A DNA stretch of 32,000 nt from Trichlorobacter lovleyi SZ (GTDB taxonomy: Bacteria > Desulfobacterota > Desulfuromonadia > Geobacterales > Pseudopelobacteraceae), in contig NC_010814.1 of the NCBI RefSeq assembly GCF_000020385.1, forward strand, positions 1,230,001 to 1,262,000. Direction: 5' to 3'. How positions within the stretch are numbered: position 1 is the stretch's first letter; every line of letters starts with the position of its first letter. Below the pieces are notes generated by a model. The model made no database searches, had not been told where the DNA came from, and saw only the letters and a list, made by a program, of their open reading frames with translations. Below are positions 1,710-17,865 of this stretch, one piece after another. A program made the translations under genes and the position numbers.

Positions 1710-1754
1710 TTGACTCCTGAAGTAAAAAGAGAGTATATGAGTATTTAGTCATAT
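1710..1754 (+). promoter_or_regulatory. Sigma70-like promoter (TTGACT, 17-18 nt spacer, TATATG) overlapped by a 20-bp near-palindrome, ATATGAGTATTTAGTCATAT; candidate ArsR/SmtB-type operator
   Basis: TTGACT at 1710-1715 and TATAT(G) at 1734-1739. The palindrome at 1735-1754 is symmetric at 16 of 20 positions. The half-site ATATGAGT recurs at 3702. Confidence 0.45.
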
Positions 1755-1786
1755 TGTGTATACCTCTGGCTGAACGGAGTCATCCC

Positions 1787-2734
1787 ATGATCAAATCATT
1801 TGCCGATTACCTGACCTTCACCCTGATCGGGCTACAACCCGGTTCCCACCTGGGCGAGGCACTCAATTTCTTTGTCTATGACACCCTCAAGATCTTTCTG
1901 CTGCTGACGGTTATTATTTTTTGTGTTGCGGTTATCCGGTCCTGGTTTTCTCCGGAACGGACCAGGCGCATTCTGTCCCACAACCGTGAGTACGTTGGCA
2001 ACGTATTGGCCGCCCTGCTGGGCACGGTCACCCCTTTTTGTTCCTGTTCGGCAGTGCCGCTCTTTATCGGTTTTGTTGAGTCCGGTGTGCCGCTTGGCGT
2101 GACCTTTTCGTTTCTGGTTTCGGCTCCAATGGTGAATGAGGTAGCCCTGATCATGCTCTGGGGTATGTTCGGCTGGAAGATTGCCCTGATCTACATCGGC
2201 ACCGGCTTGCTGGTGGCGATTGTCTCCGGGATTGTGATCGGCAGACTGAAGATGGAAAAGCATGTGCAGGATTACGTCTGGCAGATCAAGGTGGGCGAGG
2301 GTGAGGTTGTAGAACAAACCTTTCGTGAGAAGCTGGTCTATGCCCGTGATTACACGCGCGATCTGCTGAAGAAGATCTGGCCCTATGTAGTGATCGGGGT
2401 CGGCCTGGGCGCCTTTATCCACGGCTATGTGCCCCAGGACTTTCTGGTGCGCTGGGCAGGCAGGGACAACCCGTTTGCAGTACCGGTTGCCGTTGCCCTG
2501 GGGGTGCCGCTTTACAGTAATGCTGCCGGCGTGATTCCGATCGTACAGGCCCTGATGAGCAAGGGGATGGCGATTGGTACGGTGCTGGCCTTCATGATGG
2601 CGGTCACGGCCTTATCCCTGCCGGAGGCCGTGATCCTGAGTAATGTGTTGAAGCGGAAACTGCTGGTTACCTTTTTTGGTATTGTGGCTGTGGCTATCAT
2701 GATTGTGGGGTATCTGTTCAATCTGATTTTGTGA
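1787..2734 (+). CDS. COG0701-type permease (ArsP-like, two-domain membrane protein)
   Basis: ORF 1754..2734 trimmed to ATG 1787 (MIKSFADY...). Multi-TM hydrophobic profile and a TPFCSCSAVP motif typical of this permease family. This family is commonly found beside redox-active disulfide protein 2 and ArsR. Confidence 0.8.
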   Translation: MIKSFADYLTFTLIGLQPGSHLGEALNFFVYDTLKIFLLLTVIIFCVAVIRSWFSPERTRRILSHNREYVGNVLAALLGTVTPFCSCSAVPLFIGFVESGVPLGVTFSFLVSAPMVNEVALIMLWGMFGWKIALIYIGTGLLVAIVSGIVIGRLKMEKHVQDYVWQIKVGEGEVVEQTFREKLVYARDYTRDLLKKIWPYVVIGVGLGAFIHGYVPQDFLVRWAGRDNPFAVPVAVALGVPLYSNAAGVIPIVQALMSKGMAIGTVLAFMMAVTALSLPEAVILSNVLKRKLLVTFFGIVAVAIMIVGYLFNLIL

Positions 2735-2741
2735 GGTACTC

Positions 2742-3017
2742 ATGAAGCATCCGTCTGTTACACCAAATATTCTGGATGCACCTGATGACGAGATTATCTG
2801 TTGGTGTGCAAAGGTTAGCAAGGGGGCGGTGTGCGATGCTATTGCCGATGGTGCTGATACACTGGACAAACTGCATGAACAGCTCGGTATTCTCAGAGGT
2901 GCCCTGTGTGCAGAGAAATCTCCGCGTGGCCGTTGCTGTTGTCAGGAAGTAGTAGCTCTGCTCACCCACAGTGCCCTGTGCAGGGCACGACGGCGAGGGG
3001 CGTTGCAGGCAGCATAA
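2742..3017 (+). CDS. Small BFD-like [2Fe-2S]-binding domain protein (Cys form)
   Basis: ICWCAKVSKGAV...SPRGRCCCQEV: a CxC plus distal Cys pattern like the bacterioferritin-associated-ferredoxin-like domain. Starts 8 nt after the permease stop. Paralog of the 10839..11039 gene. Confidence 0.7.
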   Translation: MKHPSVTPNILDAPDDEIICWCAKVSKGAVCDAIADGADTLDKLHEQLGILRGALCAEKSPRGRCCCQEVVALLTHSALCRARRRGALQAA

Positions 3018-3402: not shown

Positions 3403-3414
3403 AGGGAGCAAGCC

Positions 3415-3699: not shown

Positions 3700-3701
3700 G
3701 C

Positions 3702-4128: not shown

Positions 4129-4190
4129 CAGATCCCTGACGGCGTGCCTCGTTCATGCGAGGTGCGCCGTATTACTTCCACGGAGCGCAG

Positions 4191-4460
4191 ATGGAACGAA
4201 AATATCTTGAGCTGATCGGTATCGCTGCCTCTATCGGTAGTGAATGCCCAGATTGACTGGACTGGCACCTGAATGCTGCCCGTGAGGCAGGCGCAACCGA
4301 CAATGAACTGAAAGAAACCATCAGAATGTCCCAACGGGTACGCACCGTCACACTGGATAGCCATACCCGCTTTACCGCAAAAGTCATGGAGCTGTTGAAG
4401 CAGTTACCAAATGAAGCAACCGCTGAAGGGACGGCGGATCATACCACCCAAGGAGCATGA
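4191..4460 (+). CDS. AhpD-like (carboxymuconolactone decarboxylase family core) selenoprotein with a C-P-D-U motif; TGA 4254-4256 read as Sec
   Basis: Not in the ORF track because of the in-frame TGA. Translation: MERKYLELIGIAASIGSECPDULDWHLNAAREAGATDNELKETIRMSQRV... This matches the AhpD core pattern (LI.iA.s...C..C...H...A...Ga...El.E). It fills an otherwise empty 335-nt gap. The next gene's RBS and ATG sit right at its stop. Confidence 0.75.
4274..4293 (+). promoter_or_regulatory. Candidate bacterial SECIS hairpin for TGA 4254
   Basis: CUGCC-CGUGA-GGCAG (4276-4290), extendable by 2 bp with one bulge. The loop starts 24 nt after the TGA. This is a modest stem. Confidence 0.4.
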
Positions 4461-4463
4461 ATC

Positions 4464-4691
4464 ATGAAACTGGAAGTGTTGGGCACCGGCTGTGCCAAGT
4501 GCAAGACCCTGCTTGAAAACGTCAAGAAGGCCGTTGAGACCTCTGGTAAAGAGGCGGAGATCGTCAAGGTTGAGGATATCCCTTCAATCATGAAGTACGG
4601 TGTGATGAGTACCCCGGCCCTGGTTAAGGACGGCAAGGTGCTGTTTTCCGGCAAGCTGGCCACACCTGAAGAGATTGCGGGGATGCTCTGA
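4464..4691 (+). CDS. Thioredoxin-fold redox-active disulfide protein 2 family (small cytoplasmic CxxC protein)
   Basis: MKLEVLGTGCAKCKTL... with GCAKC active site. 75 aa. Typical partner of COG0701 permeases. Confidence 0.85.
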   Translation: MKLEVLGTGCAKCKTLLENVKKAVETSGKEAEIVKVEDIPSIMKYGVMSTPALVKDGKVLFSGKLATPEEIAGML

Positions 4692-5068
4692 TGCGGATCG
4701 TCTTGACACTTCTTTGTCTCTTGTTGACAAGCAGCGCCTTTGCTGAACTCCCCTCCGGCAATCAGTTCACTATCCAGGCTGCTCTGGCCTCCGGCAAACC
4801 CACCCTTGTTGATTTCGGCGCCCGCAGCTGCATCCCTTGCAAAAAGATGGCCCCGATTCTGGAGCAGCTGGAAAAGGAATACAAAGGTCGCGCCAATGTG
4901 ATCTTCGTGGATGTCTGGCAGGACAACAAAATCGGCGGTAATTACCGGGTACAGATGATTCCCACTCAGATCTTCTTTGATGCCAATGGCAAGGAATCAG
5001 GTCGCCATATTGGTTTCCTGGATCGCCAGCCGATTATTGATACCTTCAAAAAACTGGGTGTGAAGTGA
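4691..5068 (+). CDS. Periplasmic thioredoxin (CIPC active site) with signal peptide
   Basis: TGATG overlap with the previous gene. Signal peptide MRIVLTLLCLLLTSSAFA. VDFGARSCIPCKKMAP motif. Confidence 0.85.
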   Translation: MRIVLTLLCLLLTSSAFAELPSGNQFTIQAALASGKPTLVDFGARSCIPCKKMAPILEQLEKEYKGRANVIFVDVWQDNKIGGNYRVQMIPTQIFFDANGKESGRHIGFLDRQPIIDTFKKLGVK

Positions 5069-5748
5069 GCTTTCTGGACAACATTGAGCAGATCGTCACC
5101 CTCTATCCGATCCTGGCCTTTGGAGCGGTCTTTCTGGCCGGTGTTGTGTCGTCGGCTTCCCCCTGTGTATTGGCTACCATCCCGCTGGTGGTCGGCTTTG
5201 TGGGGGGCTATGCCGATGGCGACCGCAAGAAGGCGTTCAGCTATTCTCTCTCTTTTATCCTGGGACTTTCACTGACCTTCACCGCATTTGGCATGGCTGC
5301 CGGGCTGCTGGGCACCATGTTCGGCACCATGGGGGGCTGGTGGTACGTGGCCGCCGGTATCGTCGCGTTGGTGATGGGGGGGCAGATGATCGGCCTGTAC
5401 GAAATCCGGCTGCCGATCAAGCGGGAGTTCAAACCGAAGCAGGGGGGGATCGTCGGTTCGTTCCTGCTGGGCCTGTTCTTCGGCGTGGTTTCCTCTCCCT
5501 GTGCTACCCCGGTGCTGGTGGTGATTCTGACCTATGTGGCCACCAAGGGACAGATGCTGTACGGCGCAGCATTACTGTTCACCTATGCGGTGGGACACTG
5601 CCTGCTGATGCTCTTTGCCGGAACCTTTACCGGGTTTATCGAGGCCTTTGTCAAACAACAGGGGATTGTCAACTTTTCCACCCGAGTCAAGCAGTTCGGT
5701 GGCGTGGTGGTGGCCGGGGTTGGTGTCTATCTGCTTTGGAATGCCTGA
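5065..5748 (+). CDS. ccdA: CcdA/DsbD-family transmembrane thiol-disulfide electron transporter
   Basis: GTG start overlapping the upstream stop (GTGA). Two membrane-embedded SPC(V/A) motifs (SSASPCVLATIP, VSSPCATPVL). Six-TM profile. Confidence 0.8.
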   Translation: MSFLDNIEQIVTLYPILAFGAVFLAGVVSSASPCVLATIPLVVGFVGGYADGDRKKAFSYSLSFILGLSLTFTAFGMAAGLLGTMFGTMGGWWYVAAGIVALVMGGQMIGLYEIRLPIKREFKPKQGGIVGSFLLGLFFGVVSSPCATPVLVVILTYVATKGQMLYGAALLFTYAVGHCLLMLFAGTFTGFIEAFVKQQGIVNFSTRVKQFGGVVVAGVGVYLLWNA

Positions 5749-5788
5749 AGGAACAGCTGCAAGAGCGATAATTGACAAGGAACTGACC

Positions 5789-6760
5789 ATGTCTGATCAA
5801 TCAACATTCAACCTGCATCTGCGGGGATTCATCTCGCTTTTGACCGCATTGAGCTTTTTGATCATGACCGTTTCCGGTGTGATCCTGTTTATTACCCCTC
5901 AGGGAAGGGTGGCCTACTGGCTGGACTGGACCTTTTGGGGGATCAGCAAGTCGCAGTGGGGAGATATGCATATCACCACCAGCCTGCTGTTTGCCCTGGC
6001 CGGCTTGTGGCATACCTGGTTGAACTGGCGGGCACTGGTCAGCTATTTCCACGACAAGCTCAAAAAGACGGTGGCCCTGAAGTGGGAACTGACAATTGCC
6101 GTACTGATCACCATCTTCTGTACGGTGGGGGGGATCTACAAGACGCCGCCGCTCAGCTATGTCCTTGAGCTGAACGACTGGATCAAGGACGCCTGGGTCA
6201 CAAGCCCGGATGATGAGCCGGTTATCAGTCATGCGGAACTGCTGCCGCTCAAAAACTTCCTGAAAAAGGTGGATGTTGAACTGGAACCTGCCCTGGCTGA
6301 GCTGAAAAAGCAGGGCATAGCGGTCAGCGGACCTGATCAGAAGCTGCTGGATATTGCGAGAACTAACGGCAAGTCGCCGGCAGCCATCTACAAGCTGCTG
6401 AAACCGCTGGAAGGGAAATCTGCAGCCCAGACCCCATCTGTGCCGGTTGTCCCGGCTGTTCAGCAACCTTTAAAGCCGGTAACACCTGCCACACCGGCCG
6501 GAACCGGGCATATGCCGGCAAGGCAGCGCTGGACCGCCGAGCTGGTGCAGCAGCAGTTTGAAGGTAAAGGTGTGGGGCGCAAGACCTTGGCCGCTGTCTG
6601 TCAGGAACAGCAGCTTGACCAGGCGGCAATCATCAGAAAACTTGCAGCCCGCAAGATCAACGCAGCACCGGATGATACCCTGAAAAGACTTGGCGATGAG
6701 AGCGGTGAACTGCCGCTAGAACTGCTGAAAATTATCCTTGTCGGAGAACAGCGAAATTGA
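5789..6760 (+). CDS. Membrane protein with an N-terminal DUF4405-like 4-TM domain and a duplicated soluble C-terminal module
   Basis: ORF 5615..6760 trimmed to ATG 5789 (AAGGA upstream). TM region with conserved His (WGDMHITTSLLF, LWHTWLNW). C-terminal half described in findings. Confidence 0.7.
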   Translation: MSDQSTFNLHLRGFISLLTALSFLIMTVSGVILFITPQGRVAYWLDWTFWGISKSQWGDMHITTSLLFALAGLWHTWLNWRALVSYFHDKLKKTVALKWELTIAVLITIFCTVGGIYKTPPLSYVLELNDWIKDAWVTSPDDEPVISHAELLPLKNFLKKVDVELEPALAELKKQGIAVSGPDQKLLDIARTNGKSPAAIYKLLKPLEGKSAAQTPSVPVVPAVQQPLKPVTPATPAGTGHMPARQRWTAELVQQQFEGKGVGRKTLAAVCQEQQLDQAAIIRKLAARKINAAPDDTLKRLGDESGELPLELLKIILVGEQRN

Positions 6761-6790
6761 TTACAAACATTGTCTGAGGGAGAAATAGTT

Positions 6791-7258
6791 ATGCAACGTA
6801 CGTTCGTTCTTATCCTGTTGGTGCTTGGGCTTTTCGTGCTGCCCGCTGCTGCGGCTGAAGAGGTCTTTGATCGCTTTCTGGCCGGATTTGACTACGATAC
6901 CCGGGCTGATATGAAGACCGACAGCAAGCGGTTGATCAAACTGCTTGAGGAGAAAAAGGCGGTGCTGGTGGATATCCGCTTTCCTGAGGAGACCAGGGCC
7001 TGGCGGATGGGGTTTGGTCTGTTTATTCCGCTTAATGAGCTGCCCAAACGTCTTGCCGAACTGCCCAAGGACAAGATCATCGTCACCGCCTGTCCCCACA
7101 AGGACCGTTCCTCGATTGCTATGGCCTATCTGCGCACCAAAGGCTATAATGCGCGCTACCTGACCGACGGGCTGATTGGTCTGGCTGAAAACCTGCGGGG
7201 CGATACTGCCAAGGACTTTTTGGAAGACGCCGGTTTGGCACCGGCTGGAAAGAAGTGA
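6791..7258 (+). CDS. Periplasmic single-domain rhodanese-like sulfurtransferase
   Basis: ORF trimmed to ATG 6791. Signal peptide MQRTFVLILLVLGLFVLPAAAA. Active-site loop CPHKDRS (CX4R). Confidence 0.8.
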   Translation: MQRTFVLILLVLGLFVLPAAAAEEVFDRFLAGFDYDTRADMKTDSKRLIKLLEEKKAVLVDIRFPEETRAWRMGFGLFIPLNELPKRLAELPKDKIIVTACPHKDRSSIAMAYLRTKGYNARYLTDGLIGLAENLRGDTAKDFLEDAGLAPAGKK

Positions 7259-7572
7259 GCATGCTGAATACCCTGGAGTACAGCGCTGACGTGCTGAAGG
7301 CGATCTCGCAGCCGACCCGCTTAAGGATCATCGAACTGTTGCGGGATGGTGAGCATTGTGTCTGCGAGATCTTTCCGGCGATCGGGCATGAACAGTCCAA
7401 CACCTCCCGTCACCTGCAGATGATGCTGAAGAGCGGTATCCTTAACCAGCGCAAGGATGGGCTGAAGATCTACTACTCCCTGCGGCACCCGGAGGTGCTG
7501 GAGATAGTACGGCTGGCCGGTCTGATTGCCGCTCATGAGGCAACGCAACGGGCTGCGCTGTTTACCAGGTAG
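7255..7572 (+). CDS. ArsR/SmtB-family metalloregulatory repressor
   Basis: ISQPTRLRIIELL...GEHCVCEI...SNTSRHLQMML winged-HTH pattern. GTG 7255 overlaps the upstream stop; ATG 7261 is an alternative start. Confidence 0.85.
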   Translation: MSMLNTLEYSADVLKAISQPTRLRIIELLRDGEHCVCEIFPAIGHEQSNTSRHLQMMLKSGILNQRKDGLKIYYSLRHPEVLEIVRLAGLIAAHEATQRAALFTR

Positions 7573-7591
7573 TCTGAGAAAAGGGAGGAGT

Positions 7592-8248
7592 ATGACCAGA
7601 GAACAGTGGTTGCAACGGGCAAACTGGCTGGCGTTGTTTACCATCTTCTACAATATTGCAGAGGGCGTCGGATCGGTCTGGTTCGGGGCGGCTGACGAGA
7701 CCCTGTCGCTGTTCGGTTTCGGCGTGGATTCCTTTATCGAAGTAATCTCGGCAATCGGTATCTGGCACATGCTGCGCCGGATCAAGGCCAACGGAGGAGA
7801 GTCGCGGGACGAATTTGAGCAGCGTGCCTTGCGGATTACCGGCGCTGCCTTCTACCTGCTGACCATTGGTCTGGTGCTGACTGCCGGCATCAACCTCTAC
7901 CAGCAGCACAAGCCGGAGACCACCGTCTGGGGTATTGTGATCTCACTGTTCTCGATCTCGTTCATGTGGCTGTTGATTCACTACAAGACAAAGGCCGCTA
8001 CGGCCCTTGCCTCACCGGCAATCATGGCTGATGTGGCCTGTTCCAGGGCCTGCATGTATCTGTCGGTCGCCTTGCTGATCGCCAGCGTGGGGTATGAACT
8101 GACCGGGCTCGGTTATTTTGATGCCGTTGGTGCGCTGGTGATCTCCTGGCTGACCTATAAGGAGGGGCGGGAGTCCTTTGGCAAGGCCAGGGGGTTGGCA
8201 TGCTCCTGCAGCTGTTCTTGTGAATCAGCCAAGGAGAGTTCATTGTGA
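7592..8248 (+). CDS. Cation-efflux (CDF-like) membrane protein lacking the cytoplasmic C-terminal domain, with a Cys/Ser-repeat tail
   Basis: ORF trimmed to ATG 7592, which follows GGGAGGAG. TM profile with FGVDSFIEV motif. Tail ACSCSCSCESAKESSL. Confidence 0.7.
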   Translation: MTREQWLQRANWLALFTIFYNIAEGVGSVWFGAADETLSLFGFGVDSFIEVISAIGIWHMLRRIKANGGESRDEFEQRALRITGAAFYLLTIGLVLTAGINLYQQHKPETTVWGIVISLFSISFMWLLIHYKTKAATALASPAIMADVACSRACMYLSVALLIASVGYELTGLGYFDAVGALVISWLTYKEGRESFGKARGLACSCSCSCESAKESSL

Positions 8249-9174
8249 CCACGCTTGACAGCCATATCAGCGGCAAGTTCAAGATCGCCATTGCCCTGAC
8301 GGCGGTAACCCTGGTTGCGGAAGTGGCGGGTGGTCTCTGGACCAACTCATTGGCGCTGTTGTCCGATGCCGCCCATGTCTTTCTGGATCTGTTTGCGCTG
8401 ATATTGTCACTGGCTGCCGTGCAGCTGGCCGCTCTGCCTACCTCGGAACGGCATACCTACGGATTTCACCGTTCCGAGGTGTTCGCTTCCTTTATCAATG
8501 GCCTGACTGTCTTTCTGATGGGGATCGGAATTCTGTATGAGGCCTGGGGCCGCTTTGCCGCTCCGGAACCGGTCAAGAGCGGGCCGATGCTGCTGATTGC
8601 CGTGATCGGTCTGGTGATGAATCTGCTGGCCGCCAAGACCCTGCACAGCCACAGCCATGACGACCTGAACGTGAAGAGCGCCTTCCTGCATGTGGTGGGG
8701 GATGCTGCGGCATCGGTCGGTGTCATCATCGGCGGGATCGTGATGTACTATACCGGCTGGTACCTGCTGGATGCCCTGCTGTCGGCCGCCATCGGTCTGC
8801 TGATCCTTGCCGGGGCTGGGCGGGTGCTGCGGGATTCGGTACATATTTTGATGGAAGGGGCTCCCCGTGGGCTGGATCTGGCAGAGGTGGCAGCAGCCAT
8901 CCGTGCTGTAGAAGGGGTGCAGGACCTGCACCACCTGAACGTCTGGTCGGTCTGTTCGCACATCACCGCACTCTCCGTGCATGTTGAGATCGCAGCAGGC
9001 TATGATGATCGGCGCAGCGATCTGTTGCACCGGGTTGAACACGCCCTTGAACATCGCTTTCATATCACCCATACCACCATTCAGCTTGAGTGCAGTGACT
9101 GCAACGGCGGGCCGCTGATCAAACCGCTGCAGCACCGGCAGCGTCAGGAAGCGTGCTGCGGTCACGATCACTAG
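8245..9174 (+). CDS. Cation diffusion facilitator family divalent-metal efflux transporter (CzcD/ZitB-like)
   Basis: GTG start overlapping the upstream TGA, with AAGGAGA RBS. Motifs LLSDAAHVFLDL and HVVGDAAASVGV. C-terminal domain and CCGHDH tail. Confidence 0.85.
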   Translation: MTTLDSHISGKFKIAIALTAVTLVAEVAGGLWTNSLALLSDAAHVFLDLFALILSLAAVQLAALPTSERHTYGFHRSEVFASFINGLTVFLMGIGILYEAWGRFAAPEPVKSGPMLLIAVIGLVMNLLAAKTLHSHSHDDLNVKSAFLHVVGDAAASVGVIIGGIVMYYTGWYLLDALLSAAIGLLILAGAGRVLRDSVHILMEGAPRGLDLAEVAAAIRAVEGVQDLHHLNVWSVCSHITALSVHVEIAAGYDDRRSDLLHRVEHALEHRFHITHTTIQLECSDCNGGPLIKPLQHRQRQEACCGHDH

Positions 9175-9279
9175 CCATAATGGCTGCCAGTTGAAATAAG
9201 TAGACCTGCCCCTTGCACACGTGGGTTAAGCTGAGAATGTGAGATTCACAGCACAGAGCCACAACCAAGGAGGCAGGTC

Positions 9280-10389
9280 ATGGAAAAGTGTATCACGTAT
9301 GTCGGGCTTGATGTTCACAAAAACTCCATAGATGTCGCTTTGGCCGATGAAGGCCGTGACAAGGAAGTCCGTTACTACGGCACTATTGACGGCAGTCTTG
9401 ATGCATTGGACAAAGTTCTCAGAAAACTGGTTTCTCGTGGTACCGAACTTCGATTCGTCTATGAAGCTGGCCCGTGCGGTTATGACATCTATCGGCACCT
9501 AACCCGTAAGGGTTTTGATTGTATCGTGGTTGCCCCTTCTTTGATTCCCAAGAAGAGCGGCAGCCGAATAAAGAATGATCGGCGTGATGCCGAGATGCTG
9601 GCCCGTCTGCACCGAGCAGGCGAACTGACTCCGGTCTATGTTCCGCGCATCGAAGATGAGGCAATGCGCGACCTCTGCAGGGCCCGTATCGATGCAAAGA
9701 ATGCTGAGCGAAAGGCCCGTCAGCAATTGAATGCATTTCTGCTGCGCAGCGGCTTCCGCTATAGCGGCAAAACACTCTGGAGTCTTGCCCATTGGCGTTG
9801 GATCTCCGACATACACATGACGCATTCCGCACAGCAGATCACCCTGCAGGAGTATGTGGATGCAGTCAGATCGAACACAGAGCGCGTTGATAGGATCACG
9901 GAACAGATTTGCCTGCTTGCTGCAGAATGGCGACTTGGTCCGGTTGTCGAAGCGCTCCAAGCTCTGCGGGGAGTCTCTCTGGTAGTTGCCTCAACCACCG
10001 TTGCTGAGCTTGGTGACTTGAGTCGCTTTGACAATCCCCGACATCTGATGGCGTATCTGGGGCTTGTACCTTCAGAACACTCAAGTGGAGAGTCAACACA
10101 GCGAGGCGGTATAACCAAGACTGGCAATGGACATGCACGCCGAATGCTGGTCGAAGCTGCCTGGTCGTATCGGTTGCCGGCACGGGTTAGCAGGCGACTT
10201 CGAGACCGACAACAGAATCTGCCGCAAGCGGTATGGGAGATTGCCTGGAAGGCACAGCTCAGACTTTGCGCCCGCTACAAACGACTTGTTACCAAAGGCA
10301 AGCAGGCACAGGTAGTCATTACCGCCATTGCCAGAGAACTGTCCGCATTCATGTGGGCTATAGCCCAAGCAGTACCAGTCGCATCGTAA
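9280..10389 (+). CDS. IS110-family DEDD transposase/recombinase
   Basis: YVGLDVHK, VYEAGPCGY, KNDRRDA and C-terminal GLVPSEHSSGES..RGGITKTGNGHARRMLVEAAW motifs. AAGGAGG RBS. Confidence 0.9.
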   Translation: MEKCITYVGLDVHKNSIDVALADEGRDKEVRYYGTIDGSLDALDKVLRKLVSRGTELRFVYEAGPCGYDIYRHLTRKGFDCIVVAPSLIPKKSGSRIKNDRRDAEMLARLHRAGELTPVYVPRIEDEAMRDLCRARIDAKNAERKARQQLNAFLLRSGFRYSGKTLWSLAHWRWISDIHMTHSAQQITLQEYVDAVRSNTERVDRITEQICLLAAEWRLGPVVEALQALRGVSLVVASTTVAELGDLSRFDNPRHLMAYLGLVPSEHSSGESTQRGGITKTGNGHARRMLVEAAWSYRLPARVSRRLRDRQQNLPQAVWEIAWKAQLRLCARYKRLVTKGKQAQVVITAIARELSAFMWAIAQAVPVAS

Positions 10390-10657
10390 CCAGATTTCAA
10401 AGAACATGATTCAGTTTCTGTCCACAGAGGTTGCGGCCAAGGTACCGGAGAATCCTCGGGCCTGTTATGGGATAAGGCATCAAGCCGAACTCCCGGCTCT
10501 AGCGAGAGGCAGCTCCACGACGTAGGCAAGACATGCGGTAACCAACCCGCGAATATCAGCGTGATCTACCGTCGTTGAAAAAGGCCCCGTACCTCTGGGA
10601 CAGAAATTTAAAAGATCAAAAGGGGCAGAATATTTTAGGCTTGAAACTGTCAGCCAT
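10390..10657 (+). ncRNA. Putative element-encoded guide (bridge/seek) RNA region in the long 3' non-coding end of the IS
   Basis: 268-nt non-coding right end against a 100-nt left end. Long-range pairing of CTGTCCACAGAGGT (10418-10431) with ACCTCTGGGACAG (10591-10603). The RNA identity is inferred from family knowledge only. Confidence 0.3.
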
Positions 10658-10660
10658 ATC

Positions 10661-10804
10661 AACAGGTTGTTGAAAAACTACTACGGAGCCCGTCTACTTC
10701 GTTGCGCGGTGCTCGCTCCTTCTCCTAACTATACGTTATGTCTCAGTCGCTGTGCGCCGTGCGCCTTGTAGCCGTGCTTCCTCATAACGTTTTTCAACAG
10801 CCTG
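10661..10804. repeat. About 144-bp palindromic intergenic element (element A) with 16-bp terminal inverted repeats
   Basis: CAGGTTGTTGAAAAAC (10663-10678) against the reverse complement of GTTTTTCAACAGCCTG (10789-10804), 15/16 matching. The interior has two pyrimidine-rich direct half-units ending in CTCCTAAC and CTCATAAC. Confidence 0.6.
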
Positions 10805-10838
10805 CTAACCGCAGGAACTGCTTCAGGAGATGCTATAG

Positions 10839-11039
10839 ATGCAAGATAATGAGATGATCTGTTGGTGCAGCAAGGTGACGGCCGGAGCTATCCGGCAGGC
10901 GAAACAAGACGGTGCAATTACAATGGAAGATATTCGCCGCATGACCGGCGCCTGCACCCTGGGGCGCTGCAAGGAGCTGTCCCCACGGGGTAGATGATGC
11001 GCCCGCGAGGTCAAGCAGGTGCTTGACGAAACCACCTAG
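10839..11039 (+). CDS. Small BFD-like [2Fe-2S]-domain selenoprotein; TGA 10995-10997 read as Sec (66 aa)
   Basis: AGGAG RBS 9 nt upstream of the ATG. MQDNEMICWCSKVTAGAI...CKELSPRGR-U-CAREVKQVLDETT*. The TGA aligns with the first Cys of SPRGRCCCQEV in the in-window paralog (2742..3017). SECIS-like hairpin 12 nt downstream. Confidence 0.7.
11010..11027 (+). promoter_or_regulatory. Candidate SECIS hairpin for TGA 10995
   Basis: Perfect 7-bp stem GUCAAGC/GCUUGAC with AGGU loop. The loop starts 19 nt after the TGA. Confidence 0.55.
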
Positions 11040-11834
11040 TTAGTCAACAGCCAGGGATTGCAGGAGCTGCCGCCACTCCTCATCGTTGAGTGGTACCGGG
11101 CGCATCAGCGTCTGAGGCCTGATGGCCCGCGGGTTCTTCAGCCAGCGCTTCAGCCGTTCTTCACTCCAGCTGCTGCCGTTTTCGAAGGTGGGGGGATAAA
11201 ACCTGGTCAATAGGCCGGACAGGTTGGGGCCGGCAATGCCCCGTCCCAGTCCACCGTCCCGTTTTGAAAGCAGTTTGTGGCAACCGCCGCATTGTCTGGT
11301 AAAGAACGTTTGCTGGCCTGTCTGCAGGTTGCTGAAATGGACCAGCAGCGGAGGTTCCCGGGTGGCCTTGCCAGCTTGCAGCCCCCCCGCCAGGATGGCG
11401 GTGATCAAACGATCAAGATCCGGTGGTGAAAAATGAAAATCAGGCATCTGCTGGGCCGGTTCCACCAGGGCCTTACGGATCAGCTCCGGTTTGGTGGTCC
11501 AGAGCAGGCTGTCCAGGTTTGATGCCAAACGGTTGCCTGTGCCTGCCAGGGTATGGCAGCGACGGCAGGCGGTCTGATCAGCCAGTTTTTTCCCGGCCAC
11601 AAGGCTTGCTGATCGGGGATTGGTAAAGCTGGCCTGCTGACCTTTAATCAGGTTGCCATGGGCCAGTTCTTTCCGGCTGGTCTGCGGGTTGCCCCGATGA
11701 CAGTACCGGCAACTGCCCTGTTCCGTATAGTGTGCCGGGTGGCAGTCCAGGCAGAGGTCGCGGGGAGCCGCCTGAGCTGAACAGAGCCAGATCAGAAGCA
11801 GAACCGTTGTCAGAACGGAAGCACGAAGGCCCAA
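11040..11834 (-). CDS. Periplasmic tetraheme c-type cytochrome, last gene of the Rieske/cyt b operon
   Basis: TTG start. Signal peptide ...LLLIWLCSAQA. CLDCH, CRYCH, CRRCH and CGGCH motifs. 25-nt overlap with the upstream gene. Confidence 0.8.
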   Translation of the reverse strand: MGLRASVLTTVLLLIWLCSAQAAPRDLCLDCHPAHYTEQGSCRYCHRGNPQTSRKELAHGNLIKGQQASFTNPRSASLVAGKKLADQTACRRCHTLAGTGNRLASNLDSLLWTTKPELIRKALVEPAQQMPDFHFSPPDLDRLITAILAGGLQAGKATREPPLLVHFSNLQTGQQTFFTRQCGGCHKLLSKRDGGLGRGIAGPNLSGLLTRFYPPTFENGSSWSEERLKRWLKNPRAIRPQTLMRPVPLNDEEWRQLLQSLAVD

Positions 11835-12220
11835 TTTTCCCCCCTGAAAAACAGTCCGATCAGCGTCAGAACAAGTATTCCCAGAAACAGCAGCAGTGCG
11901 GTAACGGCAGCCAGGCGATGCCGGGGGCCGAACCAGGCCGCCTTGTCAGGCGTCCTGGTGATCAGCCAGGGCAGGGCGATCAGGAACAGGCCGGCCAGCA
12001 GCACCGGATAGATCAACCAGACCCGGTAGCTGACCAGCTCCTGAATCCAGAGCAGGAACCAGGCGGATTTGACCGGATTGGGCACAACCGCCAGTCTGGC
12101 CGGTTCCTGAAGCGGCGCAGGGATCAGGGCTGCCAGCAGCAGTAGCGCTGCTGTACAAAGCCAGAAAGCACGCAGTATCAGGCGGAAAAAGTGCGGTGAG
12201 CTCTTGATGTAGTTCTTCAT
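11810..12220 (-). CDS. Cytochrome b C-terminal-domain / b6f subunit IV-like membrane protein
   Basis: ATGA overlap with the cyt b gene. Three TM segments. NPVKSAWFLLWIQEL occupies the position of the PEWY-type motif. Confidence 0.7.
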   Translation of the reverse strand: MKNYIKSSPHFFRLILRAFWLCTAALLLLAALIPAPLQEPARLAVVPNPVKSAWFLLWIQELVSYRVWLIYPVLLAGLFLIALPWLITRTPDKAAWFGPRHRLAAVTALLLFLGILVLTLIGLFFRGENWAFVLPF

Positions 12221-12837
12221 AGGTAGGGGAGCAGCCCTTTCTGCTTGCGGACCAGGTAAAAATGCAACAGACAGAGCGTGATGGTGATCATCGGCAGCAC
12301 CACCACATGCAGCACATAGAAGCGGATCAGGGATAATGGTCCTCCCACTGTGTCAGGCACCAGAATGTCGCGCAGAAAACTGCCCAGCGGTATGGTTTCC
12401 AGCAGGGTCATGCCGGTCTGGGTGGCCCAGAGCGCCAGCTGATCCATCGGCAGCAGGTACCCGGTGTAGGCCTCAAAGACCGCCAGCCCCAGCAGGCAGA
12501 TGCCGATAATCCAGTTGCGCTGACGGGGCGGGGCAAAGGCGCCGGTCAGTACCACCCGCAGGGTGTGCAGCATGATCAGGACAAGAAAGAGGTGGGATGT
12601 CATCCGGTGCAGACTGCGCAGGTACCGGCCGCCATAGACCGCTGACTCCAGAAAGATGATCGAGTTGTAGGCCTCTGTAGCGCCGGGGCGATAGTAGAAC
12701 AGCAGCAGCAGGCCGGACAGTGCCAGCAGCAGCAGGCTGCTAAAGGCCAGGCCGCCCAGACAGAGGGTGTAGCTGATCCTGAGATTCTGCTCCAGTACCA
12801 CTCTGGGAAAGAGGTGTTTGAGAAACTCTTTGAACAA
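12217..12837 (-). CDS. Cytochrome b6-type (N-terminal four-helix) cytochrome b
   Basis: TTG start with GGAGG 8 nt upstream. Motifs LFYYRP, RSLHRMTSHLFLVLIMLHTLRV and RFYVLHVVVLP...LLHFYLVRKQ, carrying the conserved heme-ligand His pairs. Confidence 0.85.
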   Translation of the reverse strand: MFKEFLKHLFPRVVLEQNLRISYTLCLGGLAFSSLLLLALSGLLLLFYYRPGATEAYNSIIFLESAVYGGRYLRSLHRMTSHLFLVLIMLHTLRVVLTGAFAPPRQRNWIIGICLLGLAVFEAYTGYLLPMDQLALWATQTGMTLLETIPLGSFLRDILVPDTVGGPLSLIRFYVLHVVVLPMITITLCLLHFYLVRKQKGLLPYL

Positions 12838-12854
12838 GGTGCAATCCTCCCTTA

Positions 12855-12977
12855 TTCCGATTCCATTTCAAGGCGCTCTCTTCGTTGGTTCGTCACCGGC
12901 TCCTCAACGTACTGCGTGTACGCCTGCGTCGCCTATTTCCTCACCGCCTTGATATCATCCTTGAACTGGAATCGAAA
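12855..12977. repeat. About 123-bp palindromic element (element B) filling the Rieske to cyt b intergenic gap
   Basis: TTCCGATTCCATTTCAAGG (12855-12873) against the reverse complement of CCTTGAACTGGAATCGAAA (12959-12977), 17/19 matching. Inner CAAGGCG/CGCCTTG stem. The interior resembles element A (CTTCGTTG..., GCTCC..TC..AAC, ...GCCTTG). Confidence 0.6.
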
Positions 12978-13370
12978 TTACCCCCGCACCACCAGCGTGG
13001 CGTCATCCTGCTCAACGATCAGCCGCGGTAGCGGACGCTCTGCCGGTCCGGCCAGTACCGTGCCGCTCCGGTCAAAACGGCTGCCGTGGCAGGGGCAGAC
13101 CATCCCTTCCGGTGTGACCGAGACGGTGCAGCCCAGGTGGGTACAGACCAGGCTCAACGCAACGATATCGTTTCCTTCCCGCATGACCGCAATCCGTTCC
13201 TGGCGGAACACCAGTGCTCCTCCTGCCGGCAGGTCGGCAAGCGGCAGACGCAACAGCACCGGCTTCCTGATGCCCTTGGGGGTCAGGAAGCGCCACAGGC
13301 CTGCCGCTACCAGCGGCAGGGTGATCAGCGTGGTGATGAAGCTGCGACGGGTGTGACGAACTTTTTCCAT
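12978..13370 (-). CDS. Rieske [2Fe-2S] protein with Tat-type signal anchor
   Basis: RRSFITTL twin-arginine N-terminus. CTHLGC and CPCHGS cluster-binding boxes. Confidence 0.9.
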   Translation of the reverse strand: MEKVRHTRRSFITTLITLPLVAAGLWRFLTPKGIRKPVLLRLPLADLPAGGALVFRQERIAVMREGNDIVALSLVCTHLGCTVSVTPEGMVCPCHGSRFDRSGTVLAGPAERPLPRLIVEQDDATLVVRG

Positions 13371-14581
13371 TTTTCCACGTATGCCTTTTTGTAGGTATCA
13401 GATTTGGCGGCCAGCCGCCGGTACCGCGCTTCATTCAGAAAACTGCCGTTTACCATCCGTTGCCCACGTTGATCCCAGAAAGATGAAAGTCCCATACCGT
13501 CCTTCTGCAGATCATAAATCCGGTCCTGGGGACGCTCCAGCAGAAAACGGCGTGGATTGTCGTGGCAGCCGTCGCACATCACGGTGCCGCGCTGGATGGT
13601 ATGGGGGGCAAAGGCCCGCCATTCTGCAGCCAGGAGCAGGTTTTCCTGTCCTGCTGACCTGCCCTTTGCAAGCCGGCTGTAATAGGCGATGAACTGCGGC
13701 CGGATCGGTGCTACTTTTCCCTGACTGTTGATCCCCAGCGGCGGCAGGTCCTGCCGCCTCAGGTAGGCACTTTTTGCATAGCCGTTCTGGGTGTAGGTAA
13801 GCGCCTGATACGGATCTTCAACAGAACCGGAGGCAAATCTCAAATAGAAGGTGCCGTATTCCTGGGCGGCCCAGGCGGCGTGGCAGGCCGCACATTCCAG
13901 CTTTTCCAGGTGCGCTGCGATCCGGTGTTCAAGCACCGTGCTGCTGGGGTGGTGGCAGTCTCTGCAGGACCTGGCTGCGGTCCTGCCGGCAATCAGGCTC
14001 TGCATGGTGTGACAGGCAGAGCAGGTCATGCCCTTTTGCTGATGCACATCCGGCAGCATTTTCAGAAAGGTTTCCCCCTCCAACCGCCGGCCACGCTGGT
14101 AGCGTTCATGCTCTTCCCGCGGAGCCCGACCGAAGTAATCCCAGCCCACGTAGTAACCCTTGTGGCATTTTGAGCAGGTATCTGCCTTGGGACGGCTGAT
14201 GGCATGGCCGTTGCCGTGGCAGTCCCGGCAGCCCTGCAGATGGCAGCCGGCACAGTTCTTCTGCTCAAAGCTGCGGTCAACCCGGCTGTAGCTGCGGGCA
14301 ATGAAGCCCTGCTCCTTGGTGCGGGTTCCCATGGCATGCAGATACATCCGCTGGTAGCCCTGGTGACACCGTACGCACCCTGCCGAGCCGTTGTCCCGGC
14401 CAGCGGGGTCAGCCAGAAGCTGCCGGCCGTTCCGGTGGCAGTCTTGACAGGCCACCCTGCTGTGAATACCACTGATCTGTATGCCGGCAGCGTGGCAGAG
14501 CCGGCACTGATCGGCAGCCCCGGCAGTGAGGCAGCTAACGAGGAGCCAGCAGGCGGCGATGAACGGTATCGTCCAGGTCAC
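13325..14581 (-). CDS. Decaheme c-type cytochrome
   Basis: GTG start. Hydrophobic N-terminus. Ten CXXCH motifs (CRLCH, CQDCH, CVRCH, CAGCH, CRDCH, CSKCH, CSACH, CRDCH, CAACH, CDGCH). Its 3' end overlaps the Rieske start by 46 nt. Confidence 0.85.
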   Translation of the reverse strand: MTWTIPFIAACWLLVSCLTAGAADQCRLCHAAGIQISGIHSRVACQDCHRNGRQLLADPAGRDNGSAGCVRCHQGYQRMYLHAMGTRTKEQGFIARSYSRVDRSFEQKNCAGCHLQGCRDCHGNGHAISRPKADTCSKCHKGYYVGWDYFGRAPREEHERYQRGRRLEGETFLKMLPDVHQQKGMTCSACHTMQSLIAGRTAARSCRDCHHPSSTVLEHRIAAHLEKLECAACHAAWAAQEYGTFYLRFASGSVEDPYQALTYTQNGYAKSAYLRRQDLPPLGINSQGKVAPIRPQFIAYYSRLAKGRSAGQENLLLAAEWRAFAPHTIQRGTVMCDGCHDNPRRFLLERPQDRIYDLQKDGMGLSSFWDQRGQRMVNGSFLNEARYRRLAAKSDTYKKAYVEKWKKFVTPVAASSPR

Positions 14582-16379
14582 GGTAGTTGATCCTTTTCCG
14601 GTAGATCGGGTCTTTGGCCGATGTGTGGCAGACCAGACAGAGGTTGACCTGCAGGGTGCGTTGCACTTCCTGCTGGTTGAGCGGCCGGGCGTTTGCGCGG
14701 GTGATGGCCGAGTAGGCCTGTACCTGTCCCTTGTGCATGGTCAGATAACCGTCCAGCGGCTTGTTGTCTGAAAGCTCGCAGATTAAGGTCCCTTTGATGC
14801 TGCGTCCCTCGACAATATGCTGGCCGAATCCCAGGAAGGCGGGGTTGGCGTGGCACTGGGCGCATCCCACGGCCTGCCTGCCGGTGTTGTGGCCGTGGAA
14901 CGGTGCGAAGCGCAGCTGGCGCTTGCCTTTGTACTGCATGATCGCCTCATTCTGCAACACCGTGCCCTGCTCATCAACCACGGTCACGAAGGTCTGGCAG
15001 CCGGGGGTGACCGGCGAGATCCGGCCTTTCTGATTCAGGGCCAGGGGAAACGGGTAGAGGGTGCGGTAATCCTCGGTCTCGCTGAACTGTCCCGGTGTCT
15101 CTACCCCCTTGATAAAATCCATCTGGGTATTTTCCCGGTCATACCGGGTATGGCAGCCGTAACACTGCACCACAGTCCGGGAGTGACAGGCAGTGCAGGT
15201 CAGGCGTCCATGTCCGGTCACTGTATGTTCAGGTGTGCCGGTTATGATTTTAGAACGGAGCAGTCTGCCGCTCTGCTTGACCTGTACCACGACATTACCG
15301 TCAACATGAAAGACGTTTGAGAAAGGGCGCCCTTTGGAGGTCAGGATCATCTCCATGCCTGGCCGCATCTGCAGCGGGTAGGAACGGGATTCCCGAACCG
15401 GATCTTCATTTTCGCGGAGAATGGCACGGTAGCGGGGTGGTCTGTCAACAGAGCCGTGACAGTCTTCACAGGTGACCTCAAGCTGCCCGTGCAGGCTGGC
15501 TGAGGCATAGCCCTCCCCCATGACTTCCCGTGAGGTGTGGCAGTCAATACAGTCCATACCGGCAGTGTAATGGATATCCGGGGCGATATGGGTAAAGTTG
15601 CGCAGATCGCTGCCCCTGACCGGTCCCGGCTGTCCGTTGCGGGTGGGAACCATGCCGTTGTTGCCGTCCATCAGACCCTGGTAGGAGAGGGCTGTCCGCC
15701 CGCTGCGGTGGTGGCACTGGGCACAGGATTGCAGCGACGGCAGCGCATGCATGGCATGGCTGGAGCCATGGGGTGATTTACCCCGCATGGTTGGATCGCC
15801 TCCGTTGTAGGTGGCCTGGGCCTCATAGGGGAAGTGGCAGGCGGCGCATCCGGCCGGGTTGCCGGCACCGTTGCCCGGGTCCTGATGTCTGGCCAGATGG
15901 CAGCGGGCGCAGAACTTGCGGTACAGTTCTCCTGACAGGTTGTCCAGTTGAGCGACCTCCTGCTGCTTAAGCGCTTTGCCGTCAGTGTCATATAACTGCG
16001 CTGCCTGGCTGCCGTAGCGGATACCGGGGCGTTCGCCCTCCCAGGTGGCCTGGATCTGGGCAATCATGCCTGCCGCGGTAAACATCTGGCTGCTCTGCAT
16101 CCGCTCAAGCTGGTGACGGTGGCAGGGGCCGCACCCCGATTCCCAGCGGCCGGTATAGGAGCGGTTTGACAGACCGTAGATGCCGCGATGTGCCTCTGCT
16201 TTGGTCTTGGCTGCAGGATTGCCGCCGTGACAGGTTACACAACCACTGTGGCTGGAAGAGGTCTGTTCGATCCCCTTGTGGCAGGATAAGCACTGTTCAT
16301 GTTGGGCGTTGCGCGGAGAACAGCCCATAAGTGAAAAAGTACTTAAAATCAAAAGTATGAAGAAAAAAAATATGCGCAT
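14535..16379 (-). CDS. Dodecaheme c-type cytochrome lipoprotein
   Basis: ORF 14535..16475 trimmed to ATG 16379 (MRIFFFFILLILSTFSLMGC, lipobox LMGC). Twelve CXXCH motifs. 47-nt overlap with the next gene. Confidence 0.8.
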   Translation of the reverse strand: MRIFFFFILLILSTFSLMGCSPRNAQHEQCLSCHKGIEQTSSSHSGCVTCHGGNPAAKTKAEAHRGIYGLSNRSYTGRWESGCGPCHRHQLERMQSSQMFTAAGMIAQIQATWEGERPGIRYGSQAAQLYDTDGKALKQQEVAQLDNLSGELYRKFCARCHLARHQDPGNGAGNPAGCAACHFPYEAQATYNGGDPTMRGKSPHGSSHAMHALPSLQSCAQCHHRSGRTALSYQGLMDGNNGMVPTRNGQPGPVRGSDLRNFTHIAPDIHYTAGMDCIDCHTSREVMGEGYASASLHGQLEVTCEDCHGSVDRPPRYRAILRENEDPVRESRSYPLQMRPGMEMILTSKGRPFSNVFHVDGNVVVQVKQSGRLLRSKIITGTPEHTVTGHGRLTCTACHSRTVVQCYGCHTRYDRENTQMDFIKGVETPGQFSETEDYRTLYPFPLALNQKGRISPVTPGCQTFVTVVDEQGTVLQNEAIMQYKGKRQLRFAPFHGHNTGRQAVGCAQCHANPAFLGFGQHIVEGRSIKGTLICELSDNKPLDGYLTMHKGQVQAYSAITRANARPLNQQEVQRTLQVNLCLVCHTSAKDPIYRKRINYRDLDDTVHRRLLAPR

Positions 16380-16440
16380 GGTAATTTGGGACAGCATAGC
16401 AGCAGACCGGGAATCTTGCCAGTGACAGGATGATATCTGC

Positions 16441-16470
16441 AGAAAAAAGCCGGCGGTTTGAGCCGCCGGC
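16441..16470 (-). terminator. Rho-independent terminator after the Sec-cytochrome gene
   Basis: On the minus strand: GCCGGCGG-CUCAAA-CCGCCGGC followed by UUUUUU. Lies 52 nt past the stop at 16522. Confidence 0.75.
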
Positions 16471-16521
16471 ACCACATGAAGGAGGGATAGGTGAGTATCC
16501 CTGTGTTGCTTGTTTTGCCGG

Positions 16522-17865
16522 TTATTTTCCGGTAGTACTGATTTTTACGGTCTTTTTGAACTCTTTCCAGAGGAACGGATCATCATCCATGGTGCCGAAC
16601 GGCAGGTACCAGAGCCTGACTTCCAGATCCAGGGTGTCGCTGCTGATGCTGCTTACCTTCTTGCCATCCTTCTCCTCTGTCTTGACCGGGAAGAAGATGT
16701 CATGGGTTGTGATGATCGTCCTCAACGGCGGCAGGCTGGTGTCTTCCAGCATACCGCTCTTTTCGTAAGGACCACGTCCCATCCGGTCGCCTTTACCCAG
16801 TTGCTGAGGAATCGGCATGAATATACGTTCTGCGTTGAATACTTCCTTGCCACTCTTGTCTTTTGCTTTTACCGACAGAACCAGTCGGTTGGGGGTCGGT
16901 CAGCCATCGGGTATGCCGTGACCGGCCTTGTTGGTCAGCTCAATCCGTACCGCTGCCTTGGGACGGATAGTCGTGTTATCCCGCCAGTAGACCGAGTTGG
17001 TTTCCACATGCATCTCAACCGCCTTTTGAGCCATCTCCTTGGAGCGGTAACTCTGCATGTTATGGCCCAGCTTGCTCTCACGCATATGGCACTGCTGGCA
17101 GCTCTTGTTGCCCCCTTCCGGTATATAGGCCATCAGGTAGCTGGCATAGCCGGTTGCACACTGGGTCGGGTTTTCCTGATCAAAGTTGGGGCCCTGTCCG
17201 TGACACTGGCCACACATGATCGATTCAGACATGATCTGCCCTTTGGCCATTTTGGTGAACTTGCCATCCATATGCTCGCCTGACTTGCTGCCGTAGACCG
17301 TATCCTTTTTGGGGTAGCCTTCAGACCACTTGTGGGTAATGGCATTACGGTTGTGGCAGATCAGGCAGTTAATATTAAGTGAGGAAAGGGTCTTCTCAAG
17401 TTTTTCTGCCTTGTCGGTATCTTCCTTTTTAATGGCGGCATCCCAATCCCAGAGCGTGGTCACGATTTCCTGAGCAACCTTGTCGGTTGCATCAGCCAGT
17501 TGGGGCAGGTGACACTTGGTACAGCCCTGCAGGTGTTCAACCTTGACATCCTTGGGTGACTTGACACCGGAGGCGGGCCAATCCATTGCGCCGTTGATGA
17601 TAGCGGTCCTGAAGGTGGCTGCAGTACGTCCTGTGCCAAAGATAGAGCGGGCGTGGATCGATTTTGCCCATTCGTCATGGGCCTGCTGATGGCAGCCGAT
17701 GCAGGAACTGGAGTCATAGCGTGCCACCAGTTCGGCAATACTGTTGGCCTTGGGCTGCGAAGCAAGGGTGGCGTCGCGGCCAACACCGACAGGAGCGGCA
17801 AGCGCCGCTACGGCAAAGGTACTAAGTGCCAGGCAGGCCAGAACTGTAGTACGAAATAGGTGCAT
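16522..17865 (-). CDS. extKL: Pentaheme c-type cytochrome selenoprotein (ExtKL-type); TGA at 16902-16900 read as Sec (447 aa)
   Basis: ORFs 16900..17865 and 16522..16818 are in the same frame (offset 1047 nt) with no other stop between them. Junction: ...NKAGHGIPDG-U-PTPNRLVLSVKAKDKSGKEV... Five CXXCH motifs (CIGCH, CTKCH, CLICH, CGQCH, CQQCH). SECIS-like hairpin downstream. The gene context matches extHIJKL. Confidence 0.8.
16871..16889 (-). promoter_or_regulatory. Candidate SECIS hairpin for TGA 16902-16900
   Basis: Minus-strand RNA ACCGAC-UGGUUCU-GUCGGU: 6-bp perfect stem with GGU in the loop. The loop begins 17 nt after UGA. Confidence 0.55.

Follow-up and report, generated by a model that had tools for sequence, protein, structure and literature searches.

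Does an in-frame TGA in a short gene of Trichlorobacter lovleyi SZ end the protein, or is it read as selenocysteine (Sec)? The gene lies at 10839..11039 of a 32,000-nucleotide (nt) stretch of contig NC_010814.1 (positions 1,230,001 to 1,262,000)—called the window throughout, with all positions counted from its first letter. From ATG 10839 the frame runs through MQDNEMICWCSKVTAGAIRQAKQDGAITMEDIRRMTGACTLGRCKELSPRGR to a TGA at 10995-10997 and continues in frame as CAREVKQVLDETT up to a TAG. A paralog in the same window, at 2742..3017, reads ...CAEKSPRGRCCCQEVVALL..., which places a cysteine (Cys) opposite the TGA; the Cys that follows is common to both. The original prediction, made from the letters alone, held that this TGA encodes Sec in a mini-protein with a BFD-like [2Fe-2S] domain and that this protein might found a new selenoprotein family. 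Its statements on the frame, the TGA, CAREVKQVLDETT and the TAG are all reproduced, and the reading of the paralog bears out the alignment of the TGA with a Cys next to a further conserved Cys. We are highly confident that the gene encodes a 66-residue, Sec-containing, stand-alone [2Fe-2S] mini-protein belonging to the already catalogued CopZ family form 1. Hence, the first part of the original prediction stands—Sec in a BFD-like mini-protein is the most likely reading in view of the Sec/Cys alternation, the downstream conservation and a hairpin—whereas the claim to a new family does not. The features concerned are collected in Table 1.

Sec and Cys alternate at the column in question. Among 5.8 billion proteins, the U-to-C query had 103 close homologs, and a scan of one genome per species provided 50 homologous DNA loci. 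At the DNA level, 30 of these 50 loci bear TGA at the column and 20 bear TGC or TGT—the covariation that the original prediction had proposed to look for. The codon after the TGA specifies Cys in 30/30 TGA loci, such that the order U-C is constant, and the frame stays open and conserved for 11–20 further codons before it meets a stop. The residues encoded there (E[IV][KR]QVLDE in the Geobacter clade and EIxxLLGQE in a second clade) can be aligned to those of the Cys forms and are conserved across TGA and Cys forms. The TGA loci come from Geobacter/Trichlorobacter, Desulfobacterales, Syntrophobacteraceae, Desulfarculus, Synergistaceae, and one Lachnospiraceae isolate. Among the database proteins, 54 of the 103 homologs terminate exactly after SPRG[RKTS], whose last residue precedes the TGA column, and the remaining 49 run on with CC and the C-terminal helix; none of the hits was an NCBI entry with Sec. 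Orthologs that end at the TGA and are unconserved beyond it—the outcome that had been named as speaking against Sec—are thus not what the loci display. The alternation of Sec and Cys together with conservation downstream is the classical signature of Sec and, therefore, favours this assignment. A sequencing error or a pseudogene is ruled out by the presence of the TGA in 30 independent assemblies, and an alternative genetic code by the use of TGA as a stop in other genes of the window. Elsewhere in the window, a mechanical listing of in-frame TGA sites adjoining Cys gave 82 further candidates, none of them convincing; the best-looking ones turned out to be neighbouring genes that share a frame, or overlaps out of frame.

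Exactly 12 nt 3′ of the TGA lies GTCAAGC-AGGT-GCTTGAC, a perfect 7-base-pair (bp) stem with an AGGU loop, found at 11010-11027 as the original prediction had described it. Its folding energy is −9.0 kcal/mol alone and −10.6 kcal/mol with flanking bases. The published model of the bacterial selenocysteine insertion sequence (SECIS; bSECIS for the bacterial form) asks for an apical loop of 3–9 nt with a G in its first two positions, a stem of 4–16 bp, a distance of 16–37 nt from the UGA, and a minimum free energy (MFE) of ≤ −7.5 kcal/mol (PMC13188914, Fig. 2 legend). The hairpin of the window agrees with all four constraints by its 4-nt AGGU loop, its 7 bp, the 19 nt from the UGA to the apical loop, and its −9.0 kcal/mol.

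That this hairpin exceeds chance follows from the comparison between sequences rather than from the folding of a single one. Within the Geobacter/Trichlorobacter clade, it is present in 16/16 sequences in the form GUCAAGC-AGGU-GCUUGAC, with 98% of hairpin cells paired. Its basal G-C pair has become A-U in four loci (L004, L008, L009, and L005) by a change from Val GUC to Ile AUC accompanied by a synonymous change from GAC to GAU; two sequences of the clade carry the GUC to AUC change without a change of the partner, and in four an A-U pair has become G-U. The third-position entropy—computed among codons for the consensus amino acid—amounts to 0.10 bit over the 7 hairpin codons versus 1.05 bit over 43 upstream codons of this clade. 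Six consecutive hairpin codons show zero synonymous change, while only 9% of the upstream codons are so invariant. The second clade bears a different hairpin, UUCUCCUG-GGY-CAGGAGAA, which sits 7 nt farther 3′; three of its pairs are altered on both sides, and 0/500 shuffles match the observed pairing or covariation. Yet other hairpins occupy the same place in L033, L045, and L049. The covariance analysis that had been suggested thus finds compensatory changes in the Geobacter clade as well as in the second clade, and the orthologs do not lack the hairpin, as had been considered at the outset, but carry it. More generally, the TGA forms possess a SECIS-like hairpin with a G-containing loop, and no such hairpin is found in the Cys forms, including the paralog at 2742..3017.

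The offset of the hairpin from the TGA differs by clade (+15 in the window and L001-L016, +22 in L036-L048), and in each clade the hairpin is coded by a different C-terminal peptide, QVLDE or LLGQE. Hence, the peptide of the last helix and the RNA hairpin appear to co-evolve, as far as the sequences tell. In two loci (L043 6142-6196 and L044 1314-1368), the loop region is 1 nt shorter and the C-terminal frame is shifted, giving LLGRRN... in place of LLGQEK, with the hairpin kept; in L044 the open frame after the TGA extends into methyltransferase-like (ArsM-like) sequence. In L026 (~3137-3580), the Cys form shares one open frame with a downstream MTH895-type thioredoxin-like protein. An intrinsic terminator was considered as another role of the hairpin in the window and is ruled out: there is no U-tract, the hairpin lies inside a conserved coding frame, and a terminator scan lists no site there.

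On the protein level, the U-to-C sequence matches the Pfam family PF04324 (Fer2_BFD) with 29.3 bits against a gathering threshold of 26, over residues 6-64 and profile positions 1-50/50; the paralog stays below the threshold with 19.1 bits. The best NCBIfam match is NF045877 (CopZ_Nterm_CU) with 47.9 bits (E 1.4e-12) over profile positions 98-158/161. Its cut-off of 190 bits is reached neither by the protein nor by the homologs P0001, P0005, and P0079, and the matches to both CopZ_Nterm models of NCBIfam are partial. A profile search of the PDB returned Bfd and the N-terminal domain of Archaeoglobus fulgidus CopZ (CopZ-NT; 2HU9). In the profile alignment, C8, C10, C44, U53, and C54 fall on C75, C77, C109, C118, and C119 of CopZ-NT, and the two share a P-x-G-R-C-C motif. 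Structure prediction was done on P0001, a natural Cys form with 72% identity to the protein of the window: AlphaFold2 reached a pLDDT of 93.6 and a pTM of 0.81 and placed the residues after CC in the last helix, 56-67. Foldseek ranks 2hu9_A first by superposition (TMq 0.73, root-mean-square deviation 1.8 Å over 60 columns) and Bfd first by E-value (TMq 0.62–0.69).

An exhaustive profile search found 863 cluster representatives when E ≤ 1e-3 was allowed and 169 when the limit was 1e-10; column statistics of this wider family were taken from 137 alignable representatives, clustered at 50% identity. In 93–98% of them, Cys occupies columns 44, 53, and 54—with Sec or the chain end as the alternative at 53—whereas column 39 holds Cys in just 50%. 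Across the family, conserved Cys or Sec is confined to five columns (8, 10, 44, 53, and 54), and these are the positions of CopZ-NT. The C-x-C ... C-x2-C pattern of Bfd is not present as such: C8-x-C10 is there, and the distal elements are C39-x4-C44 and U53-C54. By analogy with these domains, we infer a stand-alone BFD-like [2Fe-2S]-domain mini-protein with a predicted cluster.

Against this background, the TGA could still be a genuine stop, the product being the 52-residue protein of RefSeq and everything downstream remaining untranslated. Public annotation is in line with this: WP_265554241.1 (T. lovleyi), WP_078790341.1 (T. thiogenes), and WP_300740867.1 are 52-residue entries named ‘(2Fe-2S)-binding protein’ that are cut at the Sec codon, as is the 52-residue GenBank entry MCE1225980.1; these four entries stand for the Trichlorobacter/Geobacter orthologs P0002, P0027, P0049, and P0089. 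The annotation pipeline misses the Sec because no NCBIfam model reaches its cut-off for the mini-protein. We consider a genuine stop hardly credible, since the 11–20 codons downstream are in frame and show protein-level conservation across 30 independent TGA loci, with the invariant Cys coming first. Moreover, the post-UGA codons are predicted to form helix 56-67, so that a stop at the TGA would remove a structural element—it would delete the conserved Cys and the C-terminal helix from a confidently predicted compact fold. The suppressed synonymous change and the compensatory changes in the hairpin argue against it as well.

For the Sec reading, the following mechanism can be proposed. SelB would insert selenocysteine at UGA-53 under the guidance of the hairpin 11010-11027, which lies inside the coding sequence, to give a 66-residue cytoplasmic selenoprotein. 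This protein would represent a stand-alone copy of the [2Fe-2S] subdomain of Bfd and of the N-terminal domain of Archaeoglobus CopZ, and its [2Fe-2S] cluster would be held by Cys8, Cys10, Cys44, and one member of the vicinal pair U53-C54. As there are five conserved positions and four are needed for a cluster, one of the vicinal pair is expected to be the fourth ligand and the other its conserved neighbour. This other member—most likely Sec53—would be an exposed soft nucleophile beside the cluster. Sec53 is favoured as the free nucleophile because it is aligned with Cys118 of CopZ-NT, where Cys119 would be the ligand: the cluster ligands in 2HU9 are reportedly Cys75, Cys77, Cys109, and Cys119. 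The nucleophile might bind a thiophilic metal(loid), or reduce it, and pass it on to efflux systems co-transcribed with the gene, the partner being the CDF exporter here and the PF03773 permease, ACR3, or ArsC elsewhere. A. fulgidus CopZ is reported to act as a copper chaperone and to be able to reduce Cu(II) through its [2Fe-2S] domain. By analogy, a small redox-active metallochaperone-like protein is the best-supported reading; we infer selenium incorporation, cluster binding, the ligand assignment, and the metallochaperone or redox role alike.

The roles within the vicinal pair might also be reversed, with Sec53 itself as the fourth ligand that tunes the reduction potential of the cluster and Cys54 as the free neighbour. 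With five conserved columns only, one vicinal member must be the fourth ligand, and both UC and CU forms are catalogued, so that Sec would stand on the ligand column in one of them. We nevertheless hold a selenium-ligated cluster in this protein to be rather unlikely, given the alignment of U53 with Cys118 and the ligand set reported for 2HU9; known selenoproteins mostly employ Sec as a reactive nucleophile or to bind Mo, W, or Ni rather than an Fe-S cluster. Natural variants of the pair exist: in P0071 (C-Y) and in several of the 50%-identity representatives (S or E at column 53), one of its residues is replaced. Such variants could help to decide the position of the cluster ligand.

Turning from Sec53 as the probable nucleophile to the family itself, its novelty has to be given up. 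Two reviews, of 2022 and 2026, list a ‘(2Fe-2S)-binding protein (CopZ family) form 1’ with the motif GxUC next to a ‘form 2 (Csac_0668 family)’ with the motif CU (PMC9312934, PMC13188914), and the curated NCBIfam model NF045877, entitled ‘Csac_0668 family 2Fe-2S cluster-binding (seleno)protein’, covers this sister form. Form 1 is described there as a bacterial protein with a CopZ-like Fer2_BFD-like domain (CDD cd10141; example WP_245779778.1). Judged by PF04324, the partial CopZ_Nterm matches, and the sequence and fold matches to 2HU9, the protein of the window probably has the same kind of domain; it is bacterial too, and its G51-R52-U53-C54 fits the GxUC motif (PMC13188914). Neither a SECIS nor a gene context or function is reported for form 1 in these reviews. 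The comparison was made by motif and domain. This agreement is specific enough for the gene to be treated here as a further member of form 1. The family is not mentioned by Peng et al. (2016), and a literature search combining ‘selenoprotein’ and ‘BFD-like’ found nothing.

The known relatives help to place the protein further. NF045877 (form 2) describes the same [2Fe-2S] subdomain with a vicinal Cys/Sec pair; in contrast to it, the protein of the window lacks the first ~97 profile positions—which correspond to the Zn-binding subdomain in CopZ-NT—and has Sec first in the pair (UC) instead of second (CU). CopZ-NT superposes best, with five aligned Cys and P-x-G-R-C-C, and both proteins are tied to metal export. 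However, CopZ-NT is archaeal, bears only Cys and no Sec, carries the additional Zn subdomain at its N-terminus, and is joined to a copper-chaperone domain with CXXC, whereas the protein of the window stands alone. Bfd (PF04324; PDB 4E6K and 6E6R) shares the helix-turn-helix [2Fe-2S] fold and the N-terminal C-x-C ligands, but its distal ligands form C-x2-C without a vicinal CC or UC pair, and its context is iron mobilisation from bacterioferritin rather than metal efflux. Bfd is not known to have Sec forms.

Table 1 Features of the window that bear on the selenoprotein gene. Positions are those of the window.
Feature	Position	Strand	Remark
PF03773 permease gene	1754..2734	+	head of the cassette 1754-9174
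Cys-containing paralog (GRCCC)	2742..3017	+	directly 3′ of the PF03773 permease gene
ArsR/SmtB metalloregulator	7255..7572	+	conserved upstream partner of the cassette
Small CDF-like protein	7526..8248	+	conserved upstream partner of the cassette
CDF-family (ZitB/CzcD-like) metal efflux gene	8245..9174	+	immediately 5′ of the selenoprotein gene in orthologous loci
IS110-family insertion	~9175..10822 (boundaries approximate)	+	transposase 9280..10389; absent from orthologous loci
Shine-Dalgarno-like AGGAG	10825..10829	+	9 nt before ATG 10839
Complete (predicted) selenoprotein gene	10839..11039	+	66 codons including Sec53, then TAG stop
In-frame TGA, most likely read as selenocysteine (residue 53, motif G-R-U-C)	10995..10997	+	Sec/Cys alternation at the column
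13 post-Sec codons CAREVKQVLDETT	10998..11036	+	invariant Cys54 and C-terminal helix of the domain
Bacterial SECIS-like hairpin	11010..11027	+	stem 11010-11016 / 11021-11027, loop 11017-11020
TAG stop of the selenoprotein frame	11037..11039	+	in frame with ATG 10839

In Geobacter/Trichlorobacter orthologs, the stop codon of the CDF gene, a GGAGG, and the ATG of the selenoprotein gene lie within ~15 nt, which implies co-transcription. In the window, blastn against the orthologous loci and the junction sequences reveal ~1.65 kb of IS110 DNA between the CDF stop codon and the ribosome-binding site (RBS) of the selenoprotein gene. Judged by this comparison of sequences, the IS110 element has split the CDF-selenoprotein operon here. 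Its transposase (Pfam DEDD_Tnp_IS110 and Transposase_20; NF033542 with 263 bits) is of the RNA-guided type and is oriented in the same way as the selenoprotein gene. The element has a short 5′ end of ~105 nt and a long 3′ non-coding end of ~430 nt (10390-10822) with a 16-nt inverted repeat (10663-10678 / 10789-10804). This long 3′ end is the expected place of an IS1111-type guide (bridge) RNA, and no Rfam family matches it. No sigma-70-like promoter was found in 9100-11200; from the transposase to the selenoprotein gene, the + strand is likewise free of predicted terminators. Expression of the selenoprotein gene now depends on read-through or on an unrecognised promoter.

This arrangement raises the possibility that the copy is a silenced relic, cut off by the IS110 element from the promoter of the CDF operon, and that the Cys paralog does the work. 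The ~1.65 kb of inserted DNA in place of ~15 nt and the lack of a sigma-70-like promoter in that region would be in accordance with such a fate. Yet the open reading frame (ORF), RBS, Sec codon, and hairpin are all intact and match the clade consensus, and a transposase in the same orientation allows for read-through, with no + strand terminator ahead of the gene. We, therefore, give a silenced relic only a slim chance.

Set against the reading of a Sec-containing form 1 protein are the following points. The IS110 insertion may have reduced or abolished the expression of this copy. Taken as a single sequence, the hairpin is unremarkable: a 71-nt fragment (10990-11060) folds like its shuffles (z = 0.15), and the MFE fold of isolated fragments of the window is a competing, more stable pairing without the hairpin. 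If the first 12–14 nt—covered by a ribosome that pauses at the UGA—are left out, the hairpin attains a pair probability of 0.91–0.96. Rfam assigns no family, neither to the whole window at the gathering threshold nor to 9100-11100 at E ≤ 1. The genes selA, selB, and selD and a tRNA-Sec are not found in the 32-kb window, in which no tRNA was found at all; Geobacter species are recorded as users of SelD and Sec, including Geobacter sp. FRC-32. The identity with form 1 was drawn from motif and domain. Zhang and Gladyshev (2008), the Global Ocean Sampling (GOS) study that the reviews cite, carries no mention of 2Fe-2S, BFD, CopZ, or SPRGR in its text, Table 2, Table 4, and four of its supplements. 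Literature searches yielded no report of selenium incorporation, and both the selenium and the Fe-S cluster are predictions for every member of the family. Finally, the ligand assignment, with C54 as the probable ligand and Sec53 free, is made by analogy with the ligands reported for 2HU9.

The neighbourhood supplies the link to metals. Across clades, the recurrent neighbours of the gene are ArsR/SmtB, the PF03773 permease (with weak matches to the SaoE and SO_0444 Cu/Zn efflux models), and one or two CDF genes, further an MTH895/ArsE thioredoxin-like protein, a secreted thioredoxin, a DsbD/CcdA membrane protein, and a rhodanese; TolC, ArsC, and ACR3 occur occasionally. In the window, the Cys paralog adjoins the permease at the head of a cassette and the Sec copy stands at its end. 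This cassette (1754-9174) is a single long metal(loid)/thiol cassette on the + strand. It starts with the PF03773 permease, the Cys-form mini-protein, and an ORF at 2971-3402 with weak similarity to the N-terminus of HdrA and a CVCQGTC motif. There follow a 2x[4Fe-4S] ferredoxin (3415-3699; best match HgcB), a small secreted protein (3820-4128), an MTH895/ArsE thioredoxin-like protein (4464-4691), a secreted thioredoxin, DsbD_TM, and a DUF4405 protein, before it closes with a rhodanese, ArsR, and the two CDF genes. Several of its parts have weak matches to the selenoprotein-neighbourhood models TsoB and TsoR.

Directly 3′ of the selenoprotein gene, on the − strand (11040-13370), lies a cytochrome bc-type module of a dihaem cytochrome c, a split cytochrome b, and a Rieske protein, followed by multihaem cytochromes—an arrangement that is kept beside the selenoprotein gene in seven loci of the Geobacter clade. 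Farther along, a rhodanese-like gene (19927-21324, − strand) matches NF040901 (‘selenite/tellurite reduction operon rhodanese-like protein ExtH’) with 515 bits and is accompanied by a porin-like protein and multihaem cytochromes (18650-19894 and 14535-17865, both − strand). The ExtH match together with the porin-like protein and the cytochromes points to an Ext-type selenite/tellurite-reducing conduit 9 kb from the selenoprotein gene.

As a discovery, the gene matters little, as its family is already present in the selenoprotein catalogues, and the practical values are modest. The 52-residue entries of Trichlorobacter and Geobacter could be corrected and a model built for them. The analysis also provides the first explicit SECIS description for the family—three or more hairpins, each particular to a clade and co-evolving with the C-terminal helix that it encodes. 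The neighbourhood of ArsR, PF03773 permease, CDF, mini-protein, ArsE-like thioredoxin, DsbD, and rhodanese leads to a testable metal(loid)-handling hypothesis, and a 66-residue protein with a vicinal Sec-Cys pair by a predicted [2Fe-2S] cluster makes a tractable system for the role of selenium at such a site. A bolder and tentative proposal, to which we assign a small though appreciable chance, is that Sec53 ligates the [2Fe-2S] cluster or forms a selenolate soft-metal site beside it, the protein in the latter case being a selenium-dependent redox-active metallochaperone that feeds the CDF and PF03773 exporters. If this holds true, it would be the first Sec that works together with an Fe-S cluster in the trafficking of metal(loid)s, and the UC and CU forms would have arrived at the same chemistry independently of each other.

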